64,000 nt of DNA. Origin: Spirochaetia bacterium (lineage in GTDB: Bacteria; Spirochaetota; Spirochaetia; SZUA-6; Bin103). Under the pieces are notes generated by a model, which searched no databases, was not told the origin of the DNA, and saw only the letters and a list, made by a program, of their open reading frames with translations. The translations under genes were made by a program, and so were the position numbers. Positions 1 through 62,349 of the stretch are shown here, one piece after another (the stretch's first letter is position 1; each line of letters starts with the position of its first letter). The DNA lies in contig CBDAOI010000002.1 in assembly GCA_965198005.1 (NCBI GenBank), forward strand, positions 1 through 64,000. Direction: 5' to 3'.

Positions 1-378
1 TGACGGGATCCTGGCACCGCCGGCGTGAGCCACTCGGGTGGCCATGGTGGTCCCCGATCCCAGGACACCGTTGCCGACGTTGCAACCCGCGTTGATGCCG
101 GACACGACCAGATCGATAGTCCCGTCGGCCAGTGGCCCGAGGCCAAGGATCACACAATCGCTCGGTGTGCCACTGACCGCATATGCGCGCCCCCCCTCGA
201 TGGCAGTGTCTCGTTTCGCAGCAGCAAGGCCGTTATGAAAGGATATGGCGGTGCCAACGCCACTCTGCTCCTGGTCCGGTGCCACGATGAGCACCTCCTC
301 GACCCGGCTCATCGCTTCGGCGAGAGCCCGGATGCCGGGCGAATCAATACCATCGTCGTTCTTGACCAGAATCTTCAT
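1..378 (-). CDS. surE: 5'/3'-nucleotidase SurE, runs off the window start (not in the ORF track)
   Basis: Manual translation from ATG 378: MKILVKNDDGIDSPGIRALAEAMSRVEEVLIVAPDQEQSGVG...IDLVVSGINAGCNVG. NDDG, VAP..QSG and SGIN.G.N are SurE motifs. Confidence 0.85.
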   Translation of the reverse strand, partial: MKILVKNDDGIDSPGIRALAEAMSRVEEVLIVAPDQEQSGVGTAISFHNGLAAAKRDTAIEGGRAYAVSGTPSDCVILGLGPLADGTIDLVVSGINAGCNVGNGVLGSGTTMATRVAHAGGARIPS

Positions 379-391
379 TAATGGCCCACCG

Positions 392-3109
392 TCACTCGTC
401 GAGGAGAGCGACCACCCCGTTGTCGCCATCCACACGGATCATCTGCCCGTGCTTGATCCTCTTGGTGGCAATCCCGAGTCCGAGCACGGCGGGGATGTTG
501 TACTCACGGGCCACGATCGAGCCATGGGTGAGGATGCTGCCGATATCGGTCACCAGACCCCTGGCCTGGGAGAACAGCTGCGTCCAGGCGGGAGTGGTCA
601 TCGGGCACACCAGGATGGTGCCGGGTTGCATCTTCGCAAAATCGGCCGGGGACATGACGAGGCTGGCGCGTGCGGTGATCTGGCCGGGACTGCAGGCGTT
701 GCCGTTTAAGCTGTCGCTGTCCGCGTCGTTGGCGGTCTTGCCCCAGCCAGGCCCGACACCTTCTTCCGGTGGCACCGCGTTCGGTGGCACCAGCCGCAGG
801 CGCGCCTGCTGCAGTTCGCGCTGTTCGGCGACACGTTCCTTGAGTTCCGGCAGCGCCTGACCCGCCTGGCGCGCCGCGATGGCCTCTTCCAGCTCTGCTC
901 TCCACAGGTAGAAGAGATCGTCCGGCTGGGTGAGGGTGCCGGCCTCGACCAGACGGCGCCCCAGTTCGAGTGCGAGCCGCCGCAGCGTCGGCCATCCGGC
1001 CCCCAGGTAAAACAGCGCCTGTTCGCGATCAGGATAGGCGCGCTTCATGACCCAGAGGAACTCGCACAATTCCCGCCAGTCTTCGTCGCTGAAGGCCTGC
1101 TTCGCCTCCCTCAGGGCCGCCTGACGTCGCCTGGCGAGGTCGATCTGCGTGGCGGCCGGGTCGTGGTCGGTGTCCTGGACCACTGCCTTCAGGTTCAACA
1201 TCACCGGCAAGGGGTCTTCCGCAAGCGTTGGTTCGGCGAAGTCGAGCGTAGTGATCTGATGCCCGTAGCGCTCCAGATGCTGATCGATCGCCTGAACGGT
1301 CAACTCTGCCTCTGAGCGCTCACGCAACGCGGGTAGCAGCCGTTGTGCGGGAGTCGTCAGCACGAGCTCAAGGAGTCCCTCATCTGCCCGGATGAGTTCG
1401 GCAATATCGGAGATCTCGTCCTGGGCTTCCATGGAGATCGAGCGCAGGCCACTGAGGAACTGGCCGCTGCTAAACCCCTTCCCCGGGGCCGCTTTCTGCA
1501 GAAAATCATGGAATATGATTTCGGCACGCCGCAGCATATTCATGACCCACACCGTGCCGACACGGCTGACCATCGATTCCAGTCTCATCGAGGGCGACCA
1601 CCAGGTCTCACCATCCGCTCTTGCCAGGGCACACATGCCATCCAGCAGTGCCACATCCGATGCTGCCTGCGGGTCCACCTGCTGCCACTCATCAATCACG
1701 GCCAGGTACGCGGGCAACGTTTCCTTGCGCCACGAATCATACCGCTCGGCGTAAACCTTGGCCCATTTGCTAGTACTGTAGATATGGTTGCCCACAGGAG
1801 GCGTAGCCCTTACTGCGTTTACCGGCGGCGTCTTATAGATATAGAGCTTCATATTCGCGATAGTAGAGGTCAGTTCGGTCGCAGACCCGGGGCTCACGCC
1901 GAAAGTTATCGGTTCCACACCTGGGGGCGTACCCAGCGTCCAGTACGCATAACCATTGACAGCGTAATGATTACCGTTGGCCGCTCGACCGCCCACCGCA
2001 TCCTTCAGGTAGAGATCTTCGAACAGCGGCGAGACCGGACCCGGGATATGCTCCACCAGGTTTTTTCGCAGCAGTGGATTTTCCGGGACCCAATCCGGCA
2101 TGTCGGGCTTCTCCCAGCGGACCTCCTTCAGCGGTGCCGGAGGCAGGTTGGTAATCGGGCGCGACTGCAGCAGCGACAGTGTCCGGTTGACGACTGCCCA
2201 CTCGATATCCTGGGGCTGGCCGAAGTGCCGCTCCACGGCGATGGCGAGTTGGGCCAGTTCCCGCAACACCGGCTCCGCCAGCGACGACTGGTCCCGCTCC
2301 GCTGCGCTCAACTCCCGGGTGTCGGTACCCTGGCCTGCAGCGGACACCAGCATGTGCTCCTTGCTGCCGAGGATGGTCTCCCGGACTGCCAACGTGTCCC
2401 GATCGATGATGTAGGTATCGGGGGTAATCTCGCCGCCGACAATCGCCTCGCCCAGCCCAAAGCTGGCATTGACGATGATCTCGGACCGCTCCCCGGTGGC
2501 GGGGTTGGCAGTAAAGAGGATGCCGGAGACTTCCGAGGGCACCATCATCTGCACCACCACCGCCATGGCAACTGCCTCCTGGGCGATGGCATGCTCGTGC
2601 CGGTAACTGATGGCCCGTGCGGTCCACAGAGACGCCCAACAGTCGCGTACCGCCTCGAACACCGCATCGCTACCGCGTATGTTGAGATAGGTGTCCTGCT
2701 GCCCCGCGAACGACAGATCCGGCAGGTCTTCCGCGTTGGCCGAGGAGCGCACCGCAACCGGTGGTTCGCCGTCGCCCAGGGCGGCATAGGCCGCCGCGAT
2801 CTGCCCCTGCAGCGCATCACTCAGATCGGTTTTGGCAAACAACGACTGGATACGTTGCGAGGCGGAATCGAAAGACACCGCTGTGCCCACCAGTTCCGGT
2901 TTTGCCAGATCGATGATGGCCTGCTGAAGGTCGTCGTCAGAAACGAACTGCCGGTACGCGGCGGTCGTGACTGTAAAGCCTGCCGGGACTGCGAATCCCG
3001 CGGCCGTCAGTCGTGCTAACGACAGCCCCTTGCCGCCGACGGAATCGAGGTCGGCAGAGGCCGCGTCAGCAGGGGCATCGAAGGGTAGTACGTGGGCATG
3101 GGTCACCAT
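392..3109 (-). CDS. PEP/pyruvate-binding domain + PEP-utilising mobile domain phosphotransferase (rifampin phosphotransferase/PPS-like architecture)
   Basis: N-terminal VGGKG, VAVRSSANAEDL..SFAGQQDTYL, GLGEAIVGG, DIEWA, LQSRPIT; C-terminal TTPAWT...GSILTHGSIVAREYNIPAVLG phospho-His domain. Confidence 0.9.
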   Translation of the reverse strand: MVTHAHVLPFDAPADAASADLDSVGGKGLSLARLTAAGFAVPAGFTVTTAAYRQFVSDDDLQQAIIDLAKPELVGTAVSFDSASQRIQSLFAKTDLSDALQGQIAAAYAALGDGEPPVAVRSSANAEDLPDLSFAGQQDTYLNIRGSDAVFEAVRDCWASLWTARAISYRHEHAIAQEAVAMAVVVQMMVPSEVSGILFTANPATGERSEIIVNASFGLGEAIVGGEITPDTYIIDRDTLAVRETILGSKEHMLVSAAGQGTDTRELSAAERDQSSLAEPVLRELAQLAIAVERHFGQPQDIEWAVVNRTLSLLQSRPITNLPPAPLKEVRWEKPDMPDWVPENPLLRKNLVEHIPGPVSPLFEDLYLKDAVGGRAANGNHYAVNGYAYWTLGTPPGVEPITFGVSPGSATELTSTIANMKLYIYKTPPVNAVRATPPVGNHIYSTSKWAKVYAERYDSWRKETLPAYLAVIDEWQQVDPQAASDVALLDGMCALARADGETWWSPSMRLESMVSRVGTVWVMNMLRRAEIIFHDFLQKAAPGKGFSSGQFLSGLRSISMEAQDEISDIAELIRADEGLLELVLTTPAQRLLPALRERSEAELTVQAIDQHLERYGHQITTLDFAEPTLAEDPLPVMLNLKAVVQDTDHDPAATQIDLARRRQAALREAKQAFSDEDWRELCEFLWVMKRAYPDREQALFYLGAGWPTLRRLALELGRRLVEAGTLTQPDDLFYLWRAELEEAIAARQAGQALPELKERVAEQRELQQARLRLVPPNAVPPEEGVGPGWGKTANDADSDSLNGNACSPGQITARASLVMSPADFAKMQPGTILVCPMTTPAWTQLFSQARGLVTDIGSILTHGSIVAREYNIPAVLGLGIATKRIKHGQMIRVDGDNGVVALLDE

Positions 3110-3205: not shown

Positions 3206-4138
3206 TTAGACCGACCTGGCGGCATCGGCTCCCAGGCGTCCCCCACCACCCCGCAGCCGCGGGTCGAGCAGGTCCCTCACCGCGTCGCCGAACATGTTTA
3301 GACTGTAAACGGTAATAGTCAGGCAAAGACCAGGCCAGAGACCCAGGTGTGGTGCCATCTCCATGTACTGACGCCCTTCTCTGCTGAGCAGGCCTCCCCA
3401 CTCAGGAATCTCGAAAGGCAGACCGTGTCCGAGGAAGCTCAGAGAAGCAATACTCAGGATTACGCCTCCTATGCTTATCGAGAATATGATGATTACGACA
3501 GGCATAATATTGGGCACGACATGTCGGGCAAGTGTTCTCCATTTTGAAGAGCCAAACGACTCCGCCGCCTGAAAATACACATTCTCTTTAATGCCGATAA
3601 CGGCGCCTCGGATTACTCTTGAGCCGCCAATGCCTCCTGATATCCCCAGGACCACTATTATCTGTGGCACACCCCGCCCCACTATGGACATTATGGTTAA
3701 CAACAGGAGCAGTCCCGGGAAACACATCCAGGCATCGACAAATCTCTGCACAGCCAGGTCCAGTTTACCACCAAGGAATCCTGAAGTGCCGCCTATCAGG
3801 GTAGCGACCACAACATTGAGAGCGGTCGCTGCCAGACCGACCAGTAACGAAATGCGAGCCCCGTAGATAAGGCGGCTCAAGAAGTCTCGCCCCAAGTAGT
3901 CGGTACCCAGCAGATACCGGGCTGATGAGCCCTGCAGCCGGTCTGCCAGGTGTATTTCAAGAAAGCCATAAGGAGCCAGAACATCGGCGAAGATAGCCAC
4001 CAGAATCAATATCAATATGATAATCCCGCTGACAGTACCCAGTGGCTTCTCCCTCCACAGCCTGATAAAGAAATAGGTCGGCCCGGTTCGTCTCTTTGGC
4101 TCACTTACTGCTGGTGGTATCCCTATGGAATCACTCAT
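3206..4138 (-). CDS. Peptide/nickel ABC transporter permease (DppC/OppC-like), cassette 1
   Basis: LLGTDYLGRD.LSRLIYGARISL, RHVVPN, FGDAVRDLLDPR. Confidence 0.93.
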   Translation of the reverse strand: MSDSIGIPPAVSEPKRRTGPTYFFIRLWREKPLGTVSGIIILILILVAIFADVLAPYGFLEIHLADRLQGSSARYLLGTDYLGRDFLSRLIYGARISLLVGLAATALNVVVATLIGGTSGFLGGKLDLAVQRFVDAWMCFPGLLLLLTIMSIVGRGVPQIIVVLGISGGIGGSRVIRGAVIGIKENVYFQAAESFGSSKWRTLARHVVPNIMPVVIIIFSISIGGVILSIASLSFLGHGLPFEIPEWGGLLSREGRQYMEMAPHLGLWPGLCLTITVYSLNMFGDAVRDLLDPRLRGGGGRLGADAARSV

Positions 4139-7640: not shown

Positions 7641-7694
7641 AAAAGCGCGCGGCGTGTGACTCACCCGGGTTCGCCCCGGCTCACGCCGCGCGCG
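7641..7694 (-). terminator. GC-rich hairpin + U-tract in the SBP1 leader (possible attenuator)
   Basis: Minus strand GCGCGCGGCGTG...CACGCCGCGCGC followed by TTTT; homologous hairpin at 13120-13168. Confidence 0.55.
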
Positions 7695-7727
7695 CCTACG
7701 GCTCTTTGAGTATCATTCGGGCCTCCT

Positions 7728-7866
7728 GTGCACCGGCAAAAACCGGCAGGGTGTGGTGAATGGAAGAGTCATACGTCGAAGGGCTGGCGGCCCACGGCGG
7801 CGGCGCCGAGTCATGCGCTGCCGCTCGCAAGAGCGAGGGTGAAGCGTTGACCGGGGTGCGTGCGGA
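7728..7866 (+). mobile_element. 5' fragment (domain I start) of a group II intron
   Basis: GTGCACCGGC start, then GAGTCATGCG-stem(GCAA)-GTGAAGCGTTGACCGGGG..GCGG, typical of bacterial group IIB intron 5' ends; truncated after ~140 nt. Confidence 0.65.
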
Positions 7867-7989
7867 TGGCGCTGCAGGCCGTGTCGTCGGCAAGCCAAAG
7901 CACGCTCGCCGATGATGAATGGAGCTGGGAGGTGAGCTGGATACTCGAAGCTGGGTTGCCGGCAACGCTCGCTCAGTGGACTGGTGGAG

Positions 7990-8086
7990 GCTGCGGCCGA
8001 CCCGGTCGGCCGCTAGACGCGCGGACGCGTGGCGGCTGTGCGCCACACCGATCGATGGTGCCGCGCTCAGCACCGGCGCCGAGCGA
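7990..8086. repeat. ~100-bp dispersed repeat, second copy at ~58430-58548 (both upstream of SBP genes)
   Basis: Shared tagacgcgcggacgcgt and gatcgatggtgccgcgctcagcaccggcgccg. Confidence 0.7.
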
Positions 8087-8122
8087 ACGGCTGTCGCGCG
8101 GTTGGCTGGGCGACTAGCGAGC

Positions 8123-8146
8123 GAGTGAGTGAGTGAGTGAGTGAGT
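8123..8146. repeat. (GAGT)6 microsatellite
   Basis: Six perfect GAGT units read directly. Confidence 0.95.
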
Positions 8147-8154
8147 GAACCCGC

Positions 8155-8355
8155 CGACAGCTGCGTCACCGCCAGCCGGTCACTGCGCTGACTGTCGTCG
8201 TGGCGCATCATGCTCATCCATCCAACCCCGAGCGGTGAACCGTCGCACGCGGCCGGAAACCTGTCAACGACTCGGAGGTCACCGAAAGTCATCGCCAACC
8301 GGCCACTGCGCTGGCTGTCATCATGGCCCGTCATCGGCATCCGTTCGATCCCCGA
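8155..8355 (-). repeat. Two degenerate units of the ~130-bp repeat family, inverted relative to 10318-11052
   Basis: Reverse complement contains catgatgacagccagcgcagtggccggttggcg and gacagtcagcgcagtgaccggctggcggtgacgcagc. Confidence 0.85.
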
Positions 8356-8408
8356 ACTCCCTATCGTCACAGGCTCGCCTGACCATGTCAAGCGCGGACT
8401 CCGGCCTT

Positions 8409-10317
8409 CAGCAATTCTCGGGGAACGGCAAAACATCATTAACAGTAACACAACATTGCGGGCGAAAGGTTACAGAAAAAGTCTTGAGGGCGAGATCGCA
8501 AGCCCTGTCATAAGCTCAAGCCCTCCGAGTGTGTGAAACGCGACCATGCCCACCTGTTGGCCCACCGAGTGAATGCACGCACGGTCCGACCCGGCAGAAA
8601 TTCTGTAACTGATTGCAGGTGAAGTATTTAGCCACCGTCATGCAGCCGCGTGCGATGACCTGACCACCGTCAGCCACCGCCGCTCGGCCGATGCCGCGGG
8701 CTGGCGCGGTGCGGCGATCGGCCCTTCGGGGCCGGTTGCCCGCGCGCCGCCGGCACACCTGCGCCGCAGCCCCAGTCAGGGATCGTTCAGGGAGCAGGTT
8801 CAGTTCCCCAGGGAGCGGCTACCCGGACAGCGGCTGCGGCGGCGAGTTCATCCGCACCAGCACCTGGTCCCACGACGGGAACAGGAATAGCCGAAACGTG
8901 GCACGGATCGCGCCCCAGAACTCCCGGCGCGACCCGAACCCAGCCCGCACCTGCTGATACAGACCGTCCACCAGCTCGAATATCTGGTGCATGAAATAGG
9001 CCAGCAGGCCCGGCACGAAGAACGCCTCCGACAGGTACTTGTCACCATGGCCGAAGTTGTGCTCCAGGTGATAGCCCTGGTTCTTCAGCGCTTCAGCGCT
9101 TCAGCGTATTGAACCCCTCGTTCTCGATCTTCCAGCGTGCCCGTCCCGCACGCACGATCCGCGCTACGCTGCCAGCGGTCGGCACCAAGTCGGTCACCCA
9201 GGCGTTTTGATAGGTGGGCGTGCCGGCACGTACGATGCGGTAGTGCACGAAGTTGATCTGGGGACTGCGGGGCTTGCCGTTCAGCGGTACCCCGGTAACC
9301 CACTCGTATTCATGCCGGTCCCCGGTCGCGTCGATGGTGCAGCGGTGGCCAGCAGCCGACCGCGGCGCAGCCCGTCGATATCCTGGTACAGGCTGGTGTG
9401 ATCCTCCGGCTTGGCCACCAGCAGAAACGAGAAGCGGGCGGCGCGCACCTGTTCGATGAACGGTTGCTTGGAGTACAGACTATCGGCGACGATCACCGCA
9501 GCCAGCCGGGGATGGTCGTTACGGATGCGCTGCACGGCACGGTAGCCGGCTTTTATTTCACAGTCCTGCTTGCGGCGTTTGGCGCTCTTGGCGCCAGAGT
9601 CATCGGCGTTGTGAATGAACACGGGAGCCAACGGCAGCACCTGCCGCTTGTCGGGGTGGACGATGGCGGTCTGCAGGATGTCGTGGTGGTAGCGTACGGT
9701 GCCGTTGTTGGTGGCGGTCAGACAGCACTCACAGTTCACCTGGTACGAGCTGAAGTACTGGGAGCCGTCCATGGTGATGAGGTAGCGACCGTCGAGAAAC
9801 TGATAGTGCTGCAGCCATTTGGCGTCCTGCATGCGCCCTATCCAGTCGCCGAAGCAGCCGAGCAGCGGTTCATAGTCATGGCTGTCGAGCAGATCGCGGA
9901 ACTGGGAGTCGGCAGGGATCTGAGCGACGCCAAACGTAGAGTTGAGGTTGTTGGTGCGGAGTTCGTCCTGGAAGCGGCGTTGGAACTCCAGCACGGAAGG
10001 GTCTTGGAGGTAAAACAAGGCGAAACCACACACGTAGCAATCCTGCAGGGAGTACCGGACCTTGCTGGCTTGGCGGGTATCGACGACCTTGGCGGCGTGC
10101 AGGTTCAAGGAGACCAGGAGCGCACGAAAACGAAGTAATAATGGACCTCTGCGGCGACCTCTTGCCATAGGAGACAGCATGACAACCCTGGGATCGAGTG
10201 TCCAGCCGGTAGGCAACTTATTACCTGGTCATGACCTACACGACCACTTACGTGCCGTCCCGCCCGCCATTGCCCCCCACGCCGACCCTCTCAATTTTTG
10301 TTCACCGAGAATTGCTG
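8409..10317 (-). mobile_element. Insertion sequence (ISNCY/ISAs1-related DDE type) with terminal IR CAGCAATTCTCGG(T/G)GAAC
   Basis: Inverted repeats at 8409 and 10317 enclosing the transposase; the same ends recur at 21843, 35942 and 62350. Confidence 0.85.
8819..10168 (-). pseudogene. Frameshifted DDE transposase
   Basis: DGSQYFSS..C.CC, KQDCE, ADSLY, GRARWKIENE motifs; 1-nt deletion near 9348 and CTTCAGCG x3 at 9083-9106 relative to the copy at 36342-37502. Confidence 0.88.
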
Positions 10318-11052
10318 GCCTGGGGCTCGACGGATCGATGATGAAGCGCCATGATGACAGTCAGCGCAGTGGCCGGTTGGCGGTCACGTTCGCTCACCCC
10401 GGTGACCCCGACCAGTCGTTGACGGCGCGCGGCCTCTATGCTAGCTTGCCTCGCCTGGGGTTCGACAGATCAATGATGAAGCGCCATGATGACAGTCAGC
10501 GCAGTGGCCGGTTGGCGGTCACGTTCGGTGACGTCCGAGTCGTTGACAGGATGGCCGCGTCCATAGCAAGCTTGCCTCGCCTGAGGTGGGGTTCGACGGA
10601 TCGATGATGAAGCGCCATGATGACGCGCCAGGATGGCGTAAGCGTAGTGACCGGTGGCCGGTGATGTTCGGTGACGTGCGAGTCGTTGACAGGCTGGTCG
10701 CGTCCATAGCAAGCTTGCCTCGCCTCGGCTTCGACGGATCGATGATGACGCGCCATGACGACAGTCAGCGCAGTGACCGGTTGGCGGTGACGTTCGGTGA
10801 CCGCCGAGTCGTTGACAGGCGCGCCGCGCCTATGCTAGCGTGCCTCGCCTGGGGCGACGGATGCCGATGAAGCGCCATGATGACAGTCAGCGCAGTGACG
10901 GGTTGCCGGTGACCTTCGCTCACCCCGGTGACCCCCACGAGTCGTTGACGGCGCGCCGCTCCTATGCTAGCGTGCCTCACCTGGGGTTCGACGGATGGTC
11001 ATGAAGGGTCACGATGACAGGCAGCGCAGTGACCGGTTAGTTGTGACGCAGC
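10318..11052 (+). repeat. Tandem array of six imperfect 125-143-bp units (last one partial)
   Basis: Units start near 10318, 10453, 10579, 10722, 10847, 10979; core gcgccatgatgacagtcagcgcagtg(g/a)ccggttggcggt...gagtcgttgac. Confidence 0.92.
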
Positions 11053-11069
11053 CAGTGCATCCTGCTACC

Positions 11070-11883
11070 GTCGGGTAGAGCGCTGGCGCGCGCGCCCGTA
11101 GGCCACGTTTCCAGCGCCCCCCCTGAGATTCCGTACGTCGGGTTTTCCCACAGTACGGCTCGAAGCTCAGGTGCCCGCAAGCTCACGGCGGCCCTTCCCG
11201 GTACGATAGCAACCACGCTCAGCCTGATCCCTGGCTACGTGGGCGCTGTCCCCGGTTTGACCATCGCTTCGAGCCAACGGCTGTATCCACCGTTCCCCGG
11301 CTCAGTGTCCGGGCGGTGCATTTCCACTGGCTCCTCCTGAGCCCTGAGGCCCTCGCTCCAGCCGCGTTATGTTGTCGCGGCCATCGTCGCTTGGTGGCCT
11401 CATCCGCCAGTCTGCTGCTCTCCGTTCCACTTCCCGCCATCCAGCGGTTATAGGTCCGGTCCTTGGCATTCGAGGATCATCCTGCCTGAGCAGCACACCT
11501 TCCGGGCTTTCACTGCTGAACTATCCAGAATTGCCGCCTTCAACTTCCGCCGGGAGCCTACCGCGTGCACTTCCCAGTTTCTTCCGCAGCAGCACTGGCC
11601 ATCGGGTAGGAGGGGGAAACCCTTGGCACTCCGAGATCCAGCAACCAACTTCCCGCTGGGGAGGTTTTCGGCGATTAGTCCGTTCGCTCTCGCTACGGCC
11701 CTTCTGGTTGTTAGCCTCCTAGGTTGGTCGGTCGGGCTCACGCCCTCCCCTGAGTACGTTTACTTCCGGGCTTTCAGCCGTCAGAGTCGCCCCTGTCGAC
11801 TGCCGGATATAACTACGGCGCCACACTGGGATTTGCGCCGGCGGGACTTACACCCGCAAGTTCAGCAGCTAGCCTCGCTGCGC
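11070..11883 (-). ncRNA. ORF-less group II intron, copy 1 (814 nt)
   Basis: 5' GCGCAGCGAGG; domain V GAGCCGTACTGTGGGAAAACCCGACGTACGGAATCTC (AGC triad); domain VI ending CTCTACCCGAC; no RT ORF. Confidence 0.88.
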
Positions 11884-11887
11884 CCCC

Positions 11888-12700
11888 GTCGGGTAGAGCG
11901 CTGGCGCGCGCGCCCGTAGGCCACGTTTCCAGCGCCCCCCCTGAGATGCCGTACGTCGGGTTTTCCCACGGTACGGCTCAAAGCTCAGGTGCCCTTAAGC
12001 TCACGACTGCCCTTCCCGGTACGATAGCAACCACGCTCAGCCTGATCCCTTGCTACGTGGGCGCTGTCCCCGGTTTGACCATCGCTTCGAGCCAACGGCT
12101 GTATCCACCGTTCCCCGGCTCAGTGTCCGGGCGGTGCATTTCCACCGGCTCCTCCTGAGCCCTGAGGCCCTCGCTCCAGCCGCGTTATGTTGTCGCGGCC
12201 ATCTTCGCTTGCCGGCCTCATCCGCCAGTCTGCTGCTCTCCGTTCCACTTCCCGCCATCCGACGGTTATAGGTCCGGTCCTTGGCATTCAAGGATCATCC
12301 TGCCTGAGCAGCACACCTTCCGGGCTTTCACTGTTGAACTATCCAGAATTGCCGCCTTCAACTTCCGCCGGGAGCCTGCTGCGTGCACTTCCCAGTATCT
12401 TCCGCAGCAGCACTGGCCATCGGGTAGGGGAGGAAACCCTTGGCACTCCAATATCCAGCAACCAACTTCCCGCTGGGGGGGATTTCGGCGATTCGTCCGT
12501 TCGCTCTCGCTACGGCCCTTCTGGTTGTTAGCCTCCTAGGTTGGTCGGTCGGGCTCGCGCCCTTCCCTGAGTACGTTTACTTCCGGGCTTTCAGCCGTCA
12601 GAGTCGCCCCTGTCGGCTGCCGGATATAACTACGGCGCCACACTGGGATTTGCGCCGGCGGGACCTTCACCCGCAAGTTCAACAGCTAGCCTCGCTGCAC
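11888..12700 (-). ncRNA. ORF-less group II intron, copy 2 (813 nt)
   Basis: 5' GTGCAGCGAGG; domain V GAGCCGTACCGTGGGAAAACCCGACGTACGGCATCTC; 3' CTACCCGAC; near-identical to copy 1, 4 nt apart. Confidence 0.88.
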
Positions 12701-13294
12701 CCCCCCCCCCCCACTTTTTCGAACCGAGAAACAACTAACCGCTCCGGCTGATCGCCGCGCACGCGCCCCCGCGCACGCCGTCGCCTCCACTACCGCCGTA
12801 GCTATCGGTGGCACCGGCTCCGTCCATAGCCGAACCGGCATGCGGGCCGCCCACGCCGTTGTCGGCGACCGCGACCGTGCCGGATCCCCGCCCGCGACTA
12901 ACTGCGCGCAAAACCCACCGCCTGCGTCGCCGGTCAATCACCCTCGCTGCTTCGCCGGCCACCGCCGCGCGTGGCGTTGTGACGCAGGTCCCGACGTCCG
13001 CCGAGCGGTGGGCGTTTGCATGATGGGCCGCGCACGCGGATCCCATCTTACGTCAGCCATCTGGCAGGGCACCCTGTGCCCCAAGAAGGAGGTGAAGATG
13101 ATACTGAAAGAACCGCACGCGCGCGCGGTGTGAGCCCGGGCGAACCCGGTGAGTCACACGCCGCGCGCTTCAGCCATTTGACTCAAACTGGCCGTCTGCA
13201 TTGGCGGGCGCGCCCGCTGTTGCGGGCATAAGAGTAGCCAGGGAGCGCAAGTCGCTCCGCAATACTCTCGAAAAATCCACATAGGGAGAAACCT

Positions 13295-15106
13295 ATGAAC
13301 ATTGCAAAAATTAGTATGACCTTCGCGGTAGCGTTGGTCCTGGTGCTGACCGCAACCGGCCTCTGGGCCGGTGGCGCAGAAGACGAGCCGGCGGCCGCTG
13401 CCGACAAGAAGTACGTGACCGACCCCACCACCGGCAAGGTGGTGGTGGCGCCAGAGTACGGCGGGACATTAACCTATGCCTGGGGTGGAAGAGTAAGCGA
13501 TAATCAAGACCCCTTTGTTGTTGGCATGGAAGCGGGCTGGCTCATAGACGGTGTTAATGAGCGACTCGCCATCGGGGACTGGGCAATAGATAGGGACGAA
13601 TTTGACTTTAAAACGGATTATACCGAGTTTTTTGCCTTAACATGGGGTCTGGCGGAAAGCTGGGAAACGCCCGACCCACTGACTTACATCTTCCACATCC
13701 GTCAGGGCGTTCACTACGCCCTTGATCAAGACAGTGAGGCCAGCCGCTTAGTAAACGGGCGGGAGCTAACTGCCGATGATGTCGTATATACCTTGCAGCG
13801 TAATAACGTTCTGGGTGACTTCACCGAACGTCCGCAGAGGTCTTTTGCGGTTATCAACCTGCCATGGGAATCGATAGAGGCTATCGACAAATATACGGTT
13901 GTTATGAAGATGACGGATCCATCCCCCGGTGCACTAATGACTATCATCAGCGAACACATGCAGTGGATACTACCCCCCGAGGTAATCGAGCAATACGGCG
14001 ACTATAGTGATTGGAAGAACGTGGTCGGCACCGGGCCCCTTATACTGACTGACTATGTCGAAGGCGTCTCTAAAACCTATACCAAGAATCCCAACTACTG
14101 GGGCTACGACGAAAAATACCCGGAGAACCGCTTGCCCTATGTTGACGAGATAAGGGCCCTCCTTATGGCAGAAGAAGCAACACGTATATCGGCACTACGC
14201 ACGGGTAAGGTTGATATATTACAACACACCGGCGGTGCTATAAGATCCCTCGACGTGGTAAGGAGCCTCCAGAAGACCAACCCCGAAATCGAGGTGCACA
14301 CTTATTACCAGCGGGCGTTTCAGTCTTTTACTCTGAACATTCGCAACGCGCCCTTTGACGACGTCAGGGTGCGCCACGCACTGCAGATGGCACTGGACCT
14401 CGAGACGATTAACGATACCTACTATGCCGGTTATGCAAGGTTGGAAGACCCTAGGTGGAATAGCACCAAGGGGTATTACACCCCCTTTGAAGAGTGGCCT
14501 GAAGAGCTCAAGCAATACTACAGGTATGACCCGGAAGGTGCTGAGAAGCTCCTTGATGAGGCTGGATATCCGCGCGGCGCGGACGGCGTTCGATTCCAGA
14601 CCGTCTATGACCACCCGGACCACTCAGATTTGGGCTATGCGGAAATAGCTGCCGGCTACTGGGCTGATATTGGCGTTGATCTAACGATTAATGTTCTTGA
14701 CCCGCCGACTTATGTGGCTAATAGAGGAGAACATAATTATGAGATGTCCAAAGGCGACATGGCGTTTTCTGGGAACCCTGCCATATTCATAGGCTTTTAT
14801 CGCGCGGACACCCTATTTCTGCGCGAATGGTTGGGCGGAGTCGAGACCCCTGAGCTGACCGCCGCCTATGATGCCTTTTTCGCCGCTACCACCGTTGAGG
14901 GGCAGATGAAGGCATTTAGAGAGTTTGATATGGCCCTGGTTAAGCAGCACAATCAGATATGGGGTCCTCTGGCTCCACAGTTTCAGGCGAACCAGCCGTG
15001 GGTCGAAGGTTTTAACGGTGAATTCGGGATAGGAGAGCTGCAGTATCATACCATCCTCGCCCGCCTCTGGATTGATAGTGAGCTGAAGGAAGCAATGGGT
15101 CATTAG
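13295..15106 (+). CDS. ABC substrate-binding protein family 5 (SBP2)
   Basis: Signal peptide, PEYGGTLT, LAESWE, VGTGP, KNPNYWG, PFDDVRVRHALQMA; paralogue of SBP1. Confidence 0.93.
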   Translation: MNIAKISMTFAVALVLVLTATGLWAGGAEDEPAAAADKKYVTDPTTGKVVVAPEYGGTLTYAWGGRVSDNQDPFVVGMEAGWLIDGVNERLAIGDWAIDRDEFDFKTDYTEFFALTWGLAESWETPDPLTYIFHIRQGVHYALDQDSEASRLVNGRELTADDVVYTLQRNNVLGDFTERPQRSFAVINLPWESIEAIDKYTVVMKMTDPSPGALMTIISEHMQWILPPEVIEQYGDYSDWKNVVGTGPLILTDYVEGVSKTYTKNPNYWGYDEKYPENRLPYVDEIRALLMAEEATRISALRTGKVDILQHTGGAIRSLDVVRSLQKTNPEIEVHTYYQRAFQSFTLNIRNAPFDDVRVRHALQMALDLETINDTYYAGYARLEDPRWNSTKGYYTPFEEWPEELKQYYRYDPEGAEKLLDEAGYPRGADGVRFQTVYDHPDHSDLGYAEIAAGYWADIGVDLTINVLDPPTYVANRGEHNYEMSKGDMAFSGNPAIFIGFYRADTLFLREWLGGVETPELTAAYDAFFAATTVEGQMKAFREFDMALVKQHNQIWGPLAPQFQANQPWVEGFNGEFGIGELQYHTILARLWIDSELKEAMGH

Positions 15107-62026: not shown

Positions 62027-62349
62027 AGTGCTCCCCCTTGTATCGGGATCTCGGGTCTGCGACCCGTAGCCCGGGGTTTTGCTTGCGCCGGTAACACCGG
62101 CTTCCTTGCATGATGGTGGTGGTGTCGCCCCACGGCGTGTGGCGGCCGGCGCCGAGCCGGCGGCCGCACGGGAGTGAGGGACGTTGGGTGTGGACGTCTA
62201 CGGGAGCCGCTCCGCGGTCGACGCCAGCGGCGGCGAAGGAATCGAGGGCGCGGCCAGGCGCGCCGACAGGGCTTTCTAGTAGGCTGCCTGCAATTCTGGG
62301 GGGGGGAGGGACTCCTCACCATTAAGCAAGCCCGCCGCGAGCTGATTTT

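Follow-up and report, generated by a model that had tools for sequence, protein, structure and literature searches.

The 64,000-nt window analysed here (positions 1 to 64,000 of contig CBDAOI010000002.1 from a Spirochaetia bacterium) carries on its minus strand two group II introns, W1 and W2, that lack an open reading frame (ORF) and lie 4 nt apart within a run of G residues. The pair is likely the product of two separate insertions guided by base pairing, in which members of a lineage-restricted family of ORF-less introns entered a run of about 18 G, with a reverse transcriptase (RT) supplied from elsewhere. The genome to which the window belongs, G000, consists of four large contigs (C1–C4) with a total of 4.89 Mb and 66% G+C. 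Read 5′ to 3′ on the minus strand, the locus is ...GAAAAAGT-G12-(W2, 813 nt, 12700–11888)-GGGG-(W1, 814 nt, 11883–11070)-GG-TAGCAGG..., with the following parts:

12701–12712, minus strand: G12, the 5′ exon of W2 and the upstream portion of the original run of about 18 G
11888–12700, minus strand: W2, the upstream ORF-less group II intron, 813 nt, subfamily B, 5′ GUGCAG ... 3′ CCCGAC
11884–11887, minus strand: GGGG spacer, the 3′ exon of W2 and the final 4 nt of the W1 5′ exon
11070–11883, minus strand: W1, the downstream ORF-less group II intron, 814 nt, subfamily A, 5′ GCGCAG ... 3′ CCCGAC
11068–11069, minus strand: GG, the beginning of the W1 3′ exon and the end portion of the original run

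In the Rfam search that an earlier note on this DNA had proposed, both introns match RF02003 (group-II-D1D4-4) above its gathering score of 49 bits, W1 with 51.6 bits at 11688–11859 and W2 with 50.5 bits at 12505–12676; the architecture of their domain I (D1) is thereby recognised by a curated covariance model, with which other copies of the family score 50.8–51.9 bits. An empty paralogous site on contig C4 (G000:C4:373196–373212) holds an uninterrupted G17, and its flanks are identical to those of the window at 173 of 200 positions upstream and 277 of 298 downstream. The W2–W1 pair has therefore been inserted precisely into what was once a run of about 18 G. The coordinates and this paralogue bear out the earlier note, which had described two ORF-less copies of about 813 nt on the minus strand, separated by GGGG, whose removal restores 18 consecutive G (12+4+2). 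A profile search with PF00078 and PF08388 gives no match anywhere in the window, none of the five ORFs tested in the intron region has a Pfam match, and a blastn search of a plasmid collection with W1 returns nothing. W1 and W2 are ORF-less, IIB-like group II introns with defined boundaries.

Seven copies or large pieces of the family are present in G000. In addition to W1 and W2, these are:

C4:2009522–2010341: C4_2009
C3:706035–706848: C3_706, a chimera with a subfamily B 5′ part and a subfamily A 3′ part
C3:704183–705055: C3_704, with a domain VI (DVI) 59 nt longer
C4:277421–277962: C4_277, the first 542 nt only
C4:1717465–1718126: C4_1717, decayed and 5′-truncated

W1 is 99.4% identical to C4_2009 and 100% identical to C4_277 over 542 nt, and W2 is 99.3% identical to C3_704 outside the 59-nt DVI insert of the latter, while W1 and W2 share 96.1% identity. 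Since each is closer to a copy on another contig than to its neighbour, their relationships show two independent insertions, in line with the preference expressed in the earlier note for this origin over a simple duplication. The chimeric C3_706 and a DVI deletion common to both subfamilies indicate that the copies nevertheless exchange sequence. This deletion of 59–60 nt lies between CCTAYGG repeats (alignment A2, columns 803–862) and is found neither in C3_704 nor in any relative.

The target of the two introns is reflected in their exon-binding sites (EBS1 and EBS2), which are located as follows:

11607–11619, minus strand: EBS1 loop of W1, UUUCCCCCUCCUA, within the hairpin GGG-UUUCCCCCUCCUA-CCC at 11604–11622
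11609–11614, minus strand: EBS1 of W1, CCCUCC, loop positions 6–11
11659–11664, minus strand: EBS2 of W1, CCUCCC, directly after CGCCGAAAA
12425–12436, minus strand: EBS1 loop of W2, UUUCCUCCCCUA, 1 nt shorter than the W1 loop
12426–12431, minus strand: EBS1 of W2, UCCCCU as aligned
12476–12481, minus strand: EBS2 of W2, CCCCCC, directly after CGCCGAAAU

The 6 nt of EBS1, in a terminal loop, pair with exon positions −6 to −1, and the 6 nt of EBS2 pair with positions −15 to −10, leaving a 3-nt spacer. The stem of the EBS1 hairpin covaries (columns 271–287, GC in eight copies and CG in three). In five copies from relatives, the 5′ exon ends in GGUGAG-UYG-AAGGCA, EBS1 is UGCCUU and EBS2 is CUCACC, which gives 12 of 12 Watson–Crick pairs; the loop that reads UUUCC-CCCUCC-UA in W1 reads UUUCU-UGCCUU-UA in these copies, and CUCACC follows CGYCGAAAU. 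Two copies in genome G020, with exons composed of AGCGGC or GGCGGU, three nucleotides and AGAAGG, carry EBS2 GCCGCU and EBS1 CCUUUU (12/12 including G–U pairs), and one copy in G018 has EBS1 UCCCCU facing the exon AGGGGA. Altogether, four combinations of EBS1 with its intron-binding site (IBS1) and three of EBS2 with IBS2 occur at fixed geometry with 10–12 of 12 pairs, against 4.3–5.2 ± 1.6 pairs for random 15-mers of G000 used as a control. Covariation with the 5′ exon, beyond mere position, thus places EBS1 and EBS2 where the earlier note had put them, and the loop and strand sequences that it quoted are correct. In IIB-type introns, EBS3 forms a single pair with the first base of the 3′ exon (IBS3). 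In a screen for EBS3, the columns with U in the three relatives whose +1 base is A, and a different base in all others, belong exclusively to EBS1 and EBS2, the other splitting columns lying outside; no D1 column outside EBS1 and EBS2 has U where +1 is A and C or U where +1 is G, in a screen that an invariant U would escape.

W1 forms 12 of 12 pairs with a G16 exon and 4 of 12 with its present exon (the 3′ end of W2 plus GGGG), and W2 forms 10 of 12 either way, which argues that W1 probably inserted before W2. In such an order of events, W1 (subfamily A) would have entered after G16 by reverse splicing guided by EBS base pairing, and W2 (subfamily B) would then have entered the intact upstream G residues, 4 nt further 5′. 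The complementary DNA would have been made by an RT encoded elsewhere, priming from the nascent lagging strand. As judged by cumulative GC skew, the G-rich strand, which is the lagging-strand template, carries the sense strand of all seven copies, at five loci. Endonuclease-less introns with lagging-strand priming are expected to lie in this orientation. We infer both the mode of priming and present-day activity.

The presence of the introns in the 18-G run is attributable to their C-rich EBS guides. Among the G000 copies, EBS2 is CCUCCC or CCCCCC and EBS1 is CCCUCC, UCCUCC or UCCCCU. Being rich in C and U, these sets find a full match in every register of a long G run, pairing at 12 of 12 positions with an all-G exon and at 10–11 of 12 with UGGGGG-UCC-GGGGGA. 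Genome positions that pair 12/12 with the EBSs of W1 number 212, and 204 of them are all-G. The copies with EBS1 CCCUCC (W1, C4_277 and C4_1717) all three lie at G runs, and copies with U first in EBS1 lie at ...GGGGGA. The latter is part of a composite G-rich site that is not a homopolymer (a slash marks the insertion point here and below):

Composite target with its 3′ exon: GGGGGTCCGGGGGA/GGGGG

UGGGGG-UCC-GGGGGA is the exon of C4_2009, C3_706 and C3_704, and that of a fragment in G014, a genome of another genus, is nearly identical. This site type, common to two genera, is probably the older home of the family. Insertions at G runs recur in two other species of the genus: in G006 the intron 5′ junction is ...GAAAAAGTT-G6/GTGCAG and the 3′ junction CCCGAC/GG-ATGCGCCGG, and G005 retains a 3′ remnant, CCCGAC/GGGG-ATGCACCGG, junctions of the same kind as those of the window.

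The earlier note had proposed that C-rich EBSs direct these introns into G tracts in sliding register. The 12/12 pairing on G runs and the recurrence in two species agree with this proposal, but its description of the introns as programmed for homopolymers is overstated, with three of seven copies elsewhere and none in the long intact runs considered below. The targets, which it had suggested tabulating by 5′ exon, are G runs for W1, W2, C4_277 and the 5′-truncated C4_1717, the composite G-rich site for three of the seven copies, and in relatives both exons other than poly-G and the G runs of G005 and G006.

The composite site, GGGGG-T-GGGGG-TCC-GGGGG-A/GGGGG, is a textbook G-quadruplex motif, with the intron between tracts 3 and 4. 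It is located at positions 2120–2183 and 3950–4035 of locus L066 (G000:C3:702000–709000) and at about 2950–3022 of locus L067. TTGTCA-N17-TAAAAA stands about 30 nt upstream of the site, and 15 nt after it comes TGTGGACATTGTGGATAAC, a possible transposon end. A nearby ORF contains a Mu-transposase C domain.

The 3′ part of the introns contains two further elements of the ribozyme:

11125–11161 (W1 nt 723–759), minus strand: domain V (DV) of W1, GAGCCGUAC..GUACGGAAUCUC, with an AGC triad, a non-canonical 2×2 internal loop and a 3-nt bulge
11070–11123, minus strand: DVI of W1, with a bulged A at 11076, 7 nt before the 3′ end

A canonical DV is a hairpin of about 34 nt with an AGC triad and a 2-nt bulge, and a canonical DVI has its bulged branch-point A 7–8 nt from the 3′ splice site, the intron ending in AY. 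In an alignment of 11 copies, the DV pair 743–764 shows a compensatory change (UA in seven copies, GC in three), and all 11 have the bulged A at −7 and end in CCCGAC. The consensus fold of these copies comprises 254 pairs, 16 of which have compensatory changes, including the D1 closing stem, the EBS1 hairpin stem and DV; the RNA has therefore experienced structural selection. The 5′ end is GUGCA in nine of the 11 aligned copies and GCGCA in W1 and C4_2009, and one copy in G018 begins with AUGCA.

The family is restricted to a narrow lineage. Related genomes of the same taxonomic family, in two genera, contain copies at 84–91% identity, with a match in 12 of 61 genomes including G000. A search for the DV pattern in 185,579 species genomes returns seven stretches, all from metagenome-assembled genomes of Spirochaetia bacteria. 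Five of them have a 5′ end in the fetched locus, at a distance of 723–727 nt from DV, so that these copies are ORF-less; for the other two no 5′ end was found. In G022, a three-level nesting is observed (locus L044, G022:C1:4094900–4098100), where a host intron (RF02001, 118 bits, from position 3037) contains an ORF-less intron (159–3030), which in turn contains an RT-encoding intron (about 913–2910). The ORF-less copy lies in D1 of the host, the RF02001 match beginning 7 nt after the junction, and the RT intron lies between DV and DVI of the ORF-less copy and is 99% identical to the RT intron on contig C2 of G000.

The RT used by W1 and W2 must be supplied in trans. Its most likely source, though the link is weak, is the endonuclease-less RT of the full-length intron at G000:C2:156.4–158.4 kb, a candidate suggested by its Rfam family, its domain content and the G022 nesting. 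This intron matches RF02003 with 103.5 bits and contains an intact 435-aa ORF (C2:156920–158224) with RVT_1 and GIIM domains and no endonuclease domain. This is the only GIIM-bearing intron in G000 (C2:156400–158900, locus L012), and the ORF that follows it reads as an IS3-type transposase, a name given from the translation alone. A global alignment of W1 with the C2 intron without its ORF is too loose for a comparison of DIVa, the element that the driver RT binds in TeI3-like systems. Alternative donors are present in the form of 17 copies of another RT element in G000 (525–538 aa, RF02005). In these 17 RVT_1 loci (for example C3:813062–816760), RF02005 precedes the ORF, with 169.5 bits in the two loci scanned, and a weak DV/DVI match follows it; the ribozyme portion upstream of the ORF seems unusually short. 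The window itself has an RF02005 fragment at 7765–7881 on the plus strand (57 bits), with a large internal deletion.

Contigs of four public runs were compared with the window; such contigs give no information on splicing, strand or level, and some of them may come from carried-over DNA. Sponge metatranscriptome contigs are 100% identical to W1 over 430 nt and 357 nt, which does not prove transcription, as it records the presence of W1 sequence in RNA libraries. One contig from an RNA run covers 11751–12098, across the W2-GGGG-W1 junction, at 93% identity, and none of those listed spans the whole stretch, the uncovered parts carrying no information. Joints that skip about 11061–12706 were considered as spliced RNA and rejected: their sides are 25–45 nt long with other letters between, and they fit paralogous empty sites.

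A number of observations weigh against the account given above. DV is non-canonical, and RF00029, the DV/DVI model, does not match the ORF-less copies of the window at E ≤ 1; genome-wide it yields four sub-threshold matches, none of them in the family. The consensus for the 5′ end of group II introns is GUGYG, from which W1 departs with GCGCAG and all copies depart with A instead of G at position 5. Domain IV (DIV) of W1 and W2 has no RT remnant detectable by tblastn with two resident RTs (best E 0.15, on the wrong strand), and the DV-pattern search of the 185,579 species genomes revealed no cognate RT-encoding sibling. The full-length C2 intron has no blastn similarity to the ORF-less family and starts with GTAGTCC, compared with GTGCGTCC in G022. 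Of the seven genomes that contain large ORF-less copies, only G000 and G022 have an RT with at least 86% identity to that of the C2 intron, with fragments in G020, and across the 61 genomes the co-occurrence of a full-length RT with ORF-less copies is weak (two to three of the seven with full ORF-less copies). The orientation argument involves five independent loci and a weak skew. A scan for sigma-70-like promoters over 10700–13400 finds no site, with 0.4 expected, and neither splicing nor ligated exons are seen in the public-run evidence, which consists of contigs alone. As for the target, three of the seven copies in G000 occupy the non-homopolymer site GGGGGU-CC-GGGGGA, a site type that is common to different genera, and none of the 44 intact runs of at least 15 G in G000 holds an intron; targeting of such runs is therefore rare, old or constrained. 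Poly-G is also a promiscuous partner: because G–U pairing lets it pair with any pyrimidine-rich EBS, it reaches 10 of 12 even with the EBS sets of relatives in which it never serves as a target.

These last points lend some credit to the alternative that the G-run insertions are ectopic by-products, the selected home being the composite GGGGGU-CC-GGGGGA/GGGGG behind a promoter-like element, with G runs hit through their G–U resemblance to it. We regard this as possible but doubtful. The composite site holds the three G000 copies and the G014 fragment, pairs at 10–11 of 12 positions and has the promoter-like TTGTCA-N17-TAAAAA about 30 nt upstream, where the window site has no promoter in the scanned interval, and it would account for the empty long runs. 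However, G runs score 12/12, above the composite site, and G-run junctions are found again in G005 and G006. Moreover, EBS1 of W1, C4_277 and C4_1717 has a C in place of the U of the home-site copies, which fits G rather than A at −1.

That a single intron was duplicated in tandem on the spot, by unequal exchange between flanking G runs, and that an ectopic copy then converted one of the two, seems very unlikely, even though the G runs on either side would permit slipped or unequal exchange and recombination between copies is real, as the C3_706 chimera and the DVI deletion in both subfamilies attest. The differences between W1 and W2 extend over the full length (nt 2, EBS2, EBS1, DIV and DV), and since each is 99.3–100% identical to a copy on another contig, such a conversion would need to have replaced almost the whole copy exactly to its ends. 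We give even less credence to a misjoining of repeat copies at a homopolymer during assembly. The family is repeated, homopolymers are error-prone, none of the listed public-run contigs spans the whole stretch, and the contigs of fragmented relatives break at these elements; yet about 4% of positions distinguish the two copies, both of which are consistent internally, the agreement of the flanks with the empty paralogue reaches exactly to the run, the RNA-run contig at 11751–12098 crosses the junction, albeit at 93% identity, and the genome is in four large contigs. Two separate pairing-guided insertions thus remain the reading that we prefer.

Runs of G border several other modules in the window:

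12713–12745, minus strand: conserved ...GAGCGGTTAGTTGTTTCTCGGTTCGAAAAAGT, the antisense distal leader end of the SBP_bac_5 gene at 13295–15106 (plus strand), bordering the G run at many paralogous loci
10498–11067, minus strand: unit 'b', TAGCAGGATGCACTGGCTGCGTCAC..., lying downstream of the run, with tandem repeats of about 126–143 nt after this sequence
62298–62310, plus strand: G9AGGG followed by unit 'a' (ACTCCTCACCATT...)

G000 has 121 G/C runs of 9–28 nt (for example at 12700–12712 and 62298–62306 of the window) compared with six A/T runs of at least 9 nt, and runs of at least 14 G are present in 18 of 23 other genomes of the same taxonomic family. In 82 of the 121 cases, the run is followed within about 25 nt by one of eight recurrent starts, namely seven unit types (a–g) and the intron; unit 'b' follows 22 of them. 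The G9AGGG at 62298–62310, which the earlier note had singled out as an empty candidate site, is present as described but is nothing special, being one of these 121 runs. The runs may have originated from target duplication by an insertion sequence (IS), from slippage or from a function in leaders. For IS 'c', considered as a possible maker of such duplications at G runs, one complete copy is flanked by G10 on either side, and the other copies are truncated.

The intron pair lies antisense to the SBP_bac_5 operon. The SBP_bac_5 gene and its leader (window 12713–15106) align over at least 1.4 kb with at least 69 other G000 loci, several of them up to the run. The SBP_bac_5 genes form a very large paralogous family in which a leader of about 580 nt is conserved upstream of the gene, and at several loci the homology stops exactly at the run, which is a C run in the gene sense. 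The repeats at 10498–11038, directly 3′ of the intron pair, are rich in palindromic GTCACYG/CCGGT pieces, and 9281–10216 on the minus strand contains a 311-aa ORF with a sub-threshold DDE_Tnp_1_assoc match (22.9 bits; cut-off 32.3). The interval 7650–13290 between two SBP genes resembles a dump of mobile-element pieces. At the scale of the genome, the cumulative GC skew is nearly monotonic, falling along C2 and rising along C3 and most of C4; therefore, C1–C4 may be arms of fewer replicons and not four replicons.

Several features of this family have counterparts in known systems. RmInt1-type introns of bacteria lack an endonuclease and use the lagging strand for priming. The candidate RT in G000 resembles them in having only RVT_1 and maturase domains, and all copies have the lagging-strand-template orientation by GC skew; RmInt1, however, carries the gene for its own RT and has an IS element as its target, and the bias seen here comes from five loci. 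Nested introns of Methanosarcina acetivorans were reportedly described by Dai and Zimmerly in 2003. Cited as reference 41 in PMC2882425, they are a case of ORF-less and RT-encoding introns homing into one another, comparable to the nesting in G022. Unlike them, the G000 family belongs to a bacterium, not an archaeon, and has left the intron-in-intron site for G-rich DNA.

Two further parallels are the TeI3 introns of Thermosynechococcus elongatus and an intron specific for groEL. The study of T. elongatus by Mohr, Ghanem and Lambowitz (2010, PMC2882425) describes ORF-less TeI3 introns mobilised by 'driver' RTs of TeI4 introns, and with them trans-driven ORF-less derivatives, twintrons and families of sites that arose as EBSs diverged. 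Like TeI3, the introns studied here are compact, ORF-less and IIB-type, have multiplied within one genome, depend on the RT of another intron and form twintrons with RT-encoding introns. TeI3 retains recognisable ORF remnants and a close kinship to its drivers (PMC2882425), whereas no RT remnant is detectable here and the sole RT intron of the same class is too diverged for blastn. In addition, a homopolymer or G4-type tract serves as the target here, two family members lie 4 nt apart, and mobility is predicted from the sequence. In the case of EcKTE56.groEL, a groEL-specific IIB1 intron, a second copy integrates just upstream of the resident one because the 5′ exon is intact after the first insertion, and a delta-ORF form integrates in tandem more often (Mob DNA 2025, PMC12584367). 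W2 likewise lies just upstream of a resident intron, in a homopolymer version of the same arrangement. The copies of EcKTE56.groEL are identical and directly abutting (...CCGAC/GTGCG), with the first G of the intron serving as IBS3 (PMC12584367), whereas here two subfamilies are involved, the second offset by four G residues, which only a homopolymer target allows; the tandem is also natural, in contrast to that over-expression assay.

Mobilisation of ORF-less introns, EBS retargeting, twintrons and tandem integration are thus all already in print. In literature searches that also covered tandem or head-to-tail introns, we found no report of a family aimed at homopolymeric G, of a natural tandem of different subfamilies with a register offset, or of an ORF-less family without a recognisable parent RT; none of the titles and abstracts listed for group II introns directed at homopolymer, poly-G or G-rich sequences concerns such targets.

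A broader and more speculative proposal, to which we give somewhat less weight than to the ectopic alternative discussed above, is that the long G runs and the G5-N-G5-N3-G5-N-G5 home site form a shared landing pad capable of G-quadruplex formation, and that the intron family has evolved register-free, homopolymer-directed retrohoming. If this were true, tandem arrays would be expected, each insertion leaving new targetable halves of a G run. The G runs form the outer border of the leaders of dozens of transporter operons.

Group II introns are a model for RNA-guided DNA insertion and have been engineered as 'targetrons'. A natural family with homopolymer-matching guides would show that a target without register leads to sliding insertion positions and to natural tandem pairs from different donors. 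An ORF-less family without a recognisable parent RT bears on how relaxed 'driver' RTs can be, and the locus draws attention to the more than 100 long G runs that border mobile and regulatory modules in these sponge-associated bacteria.

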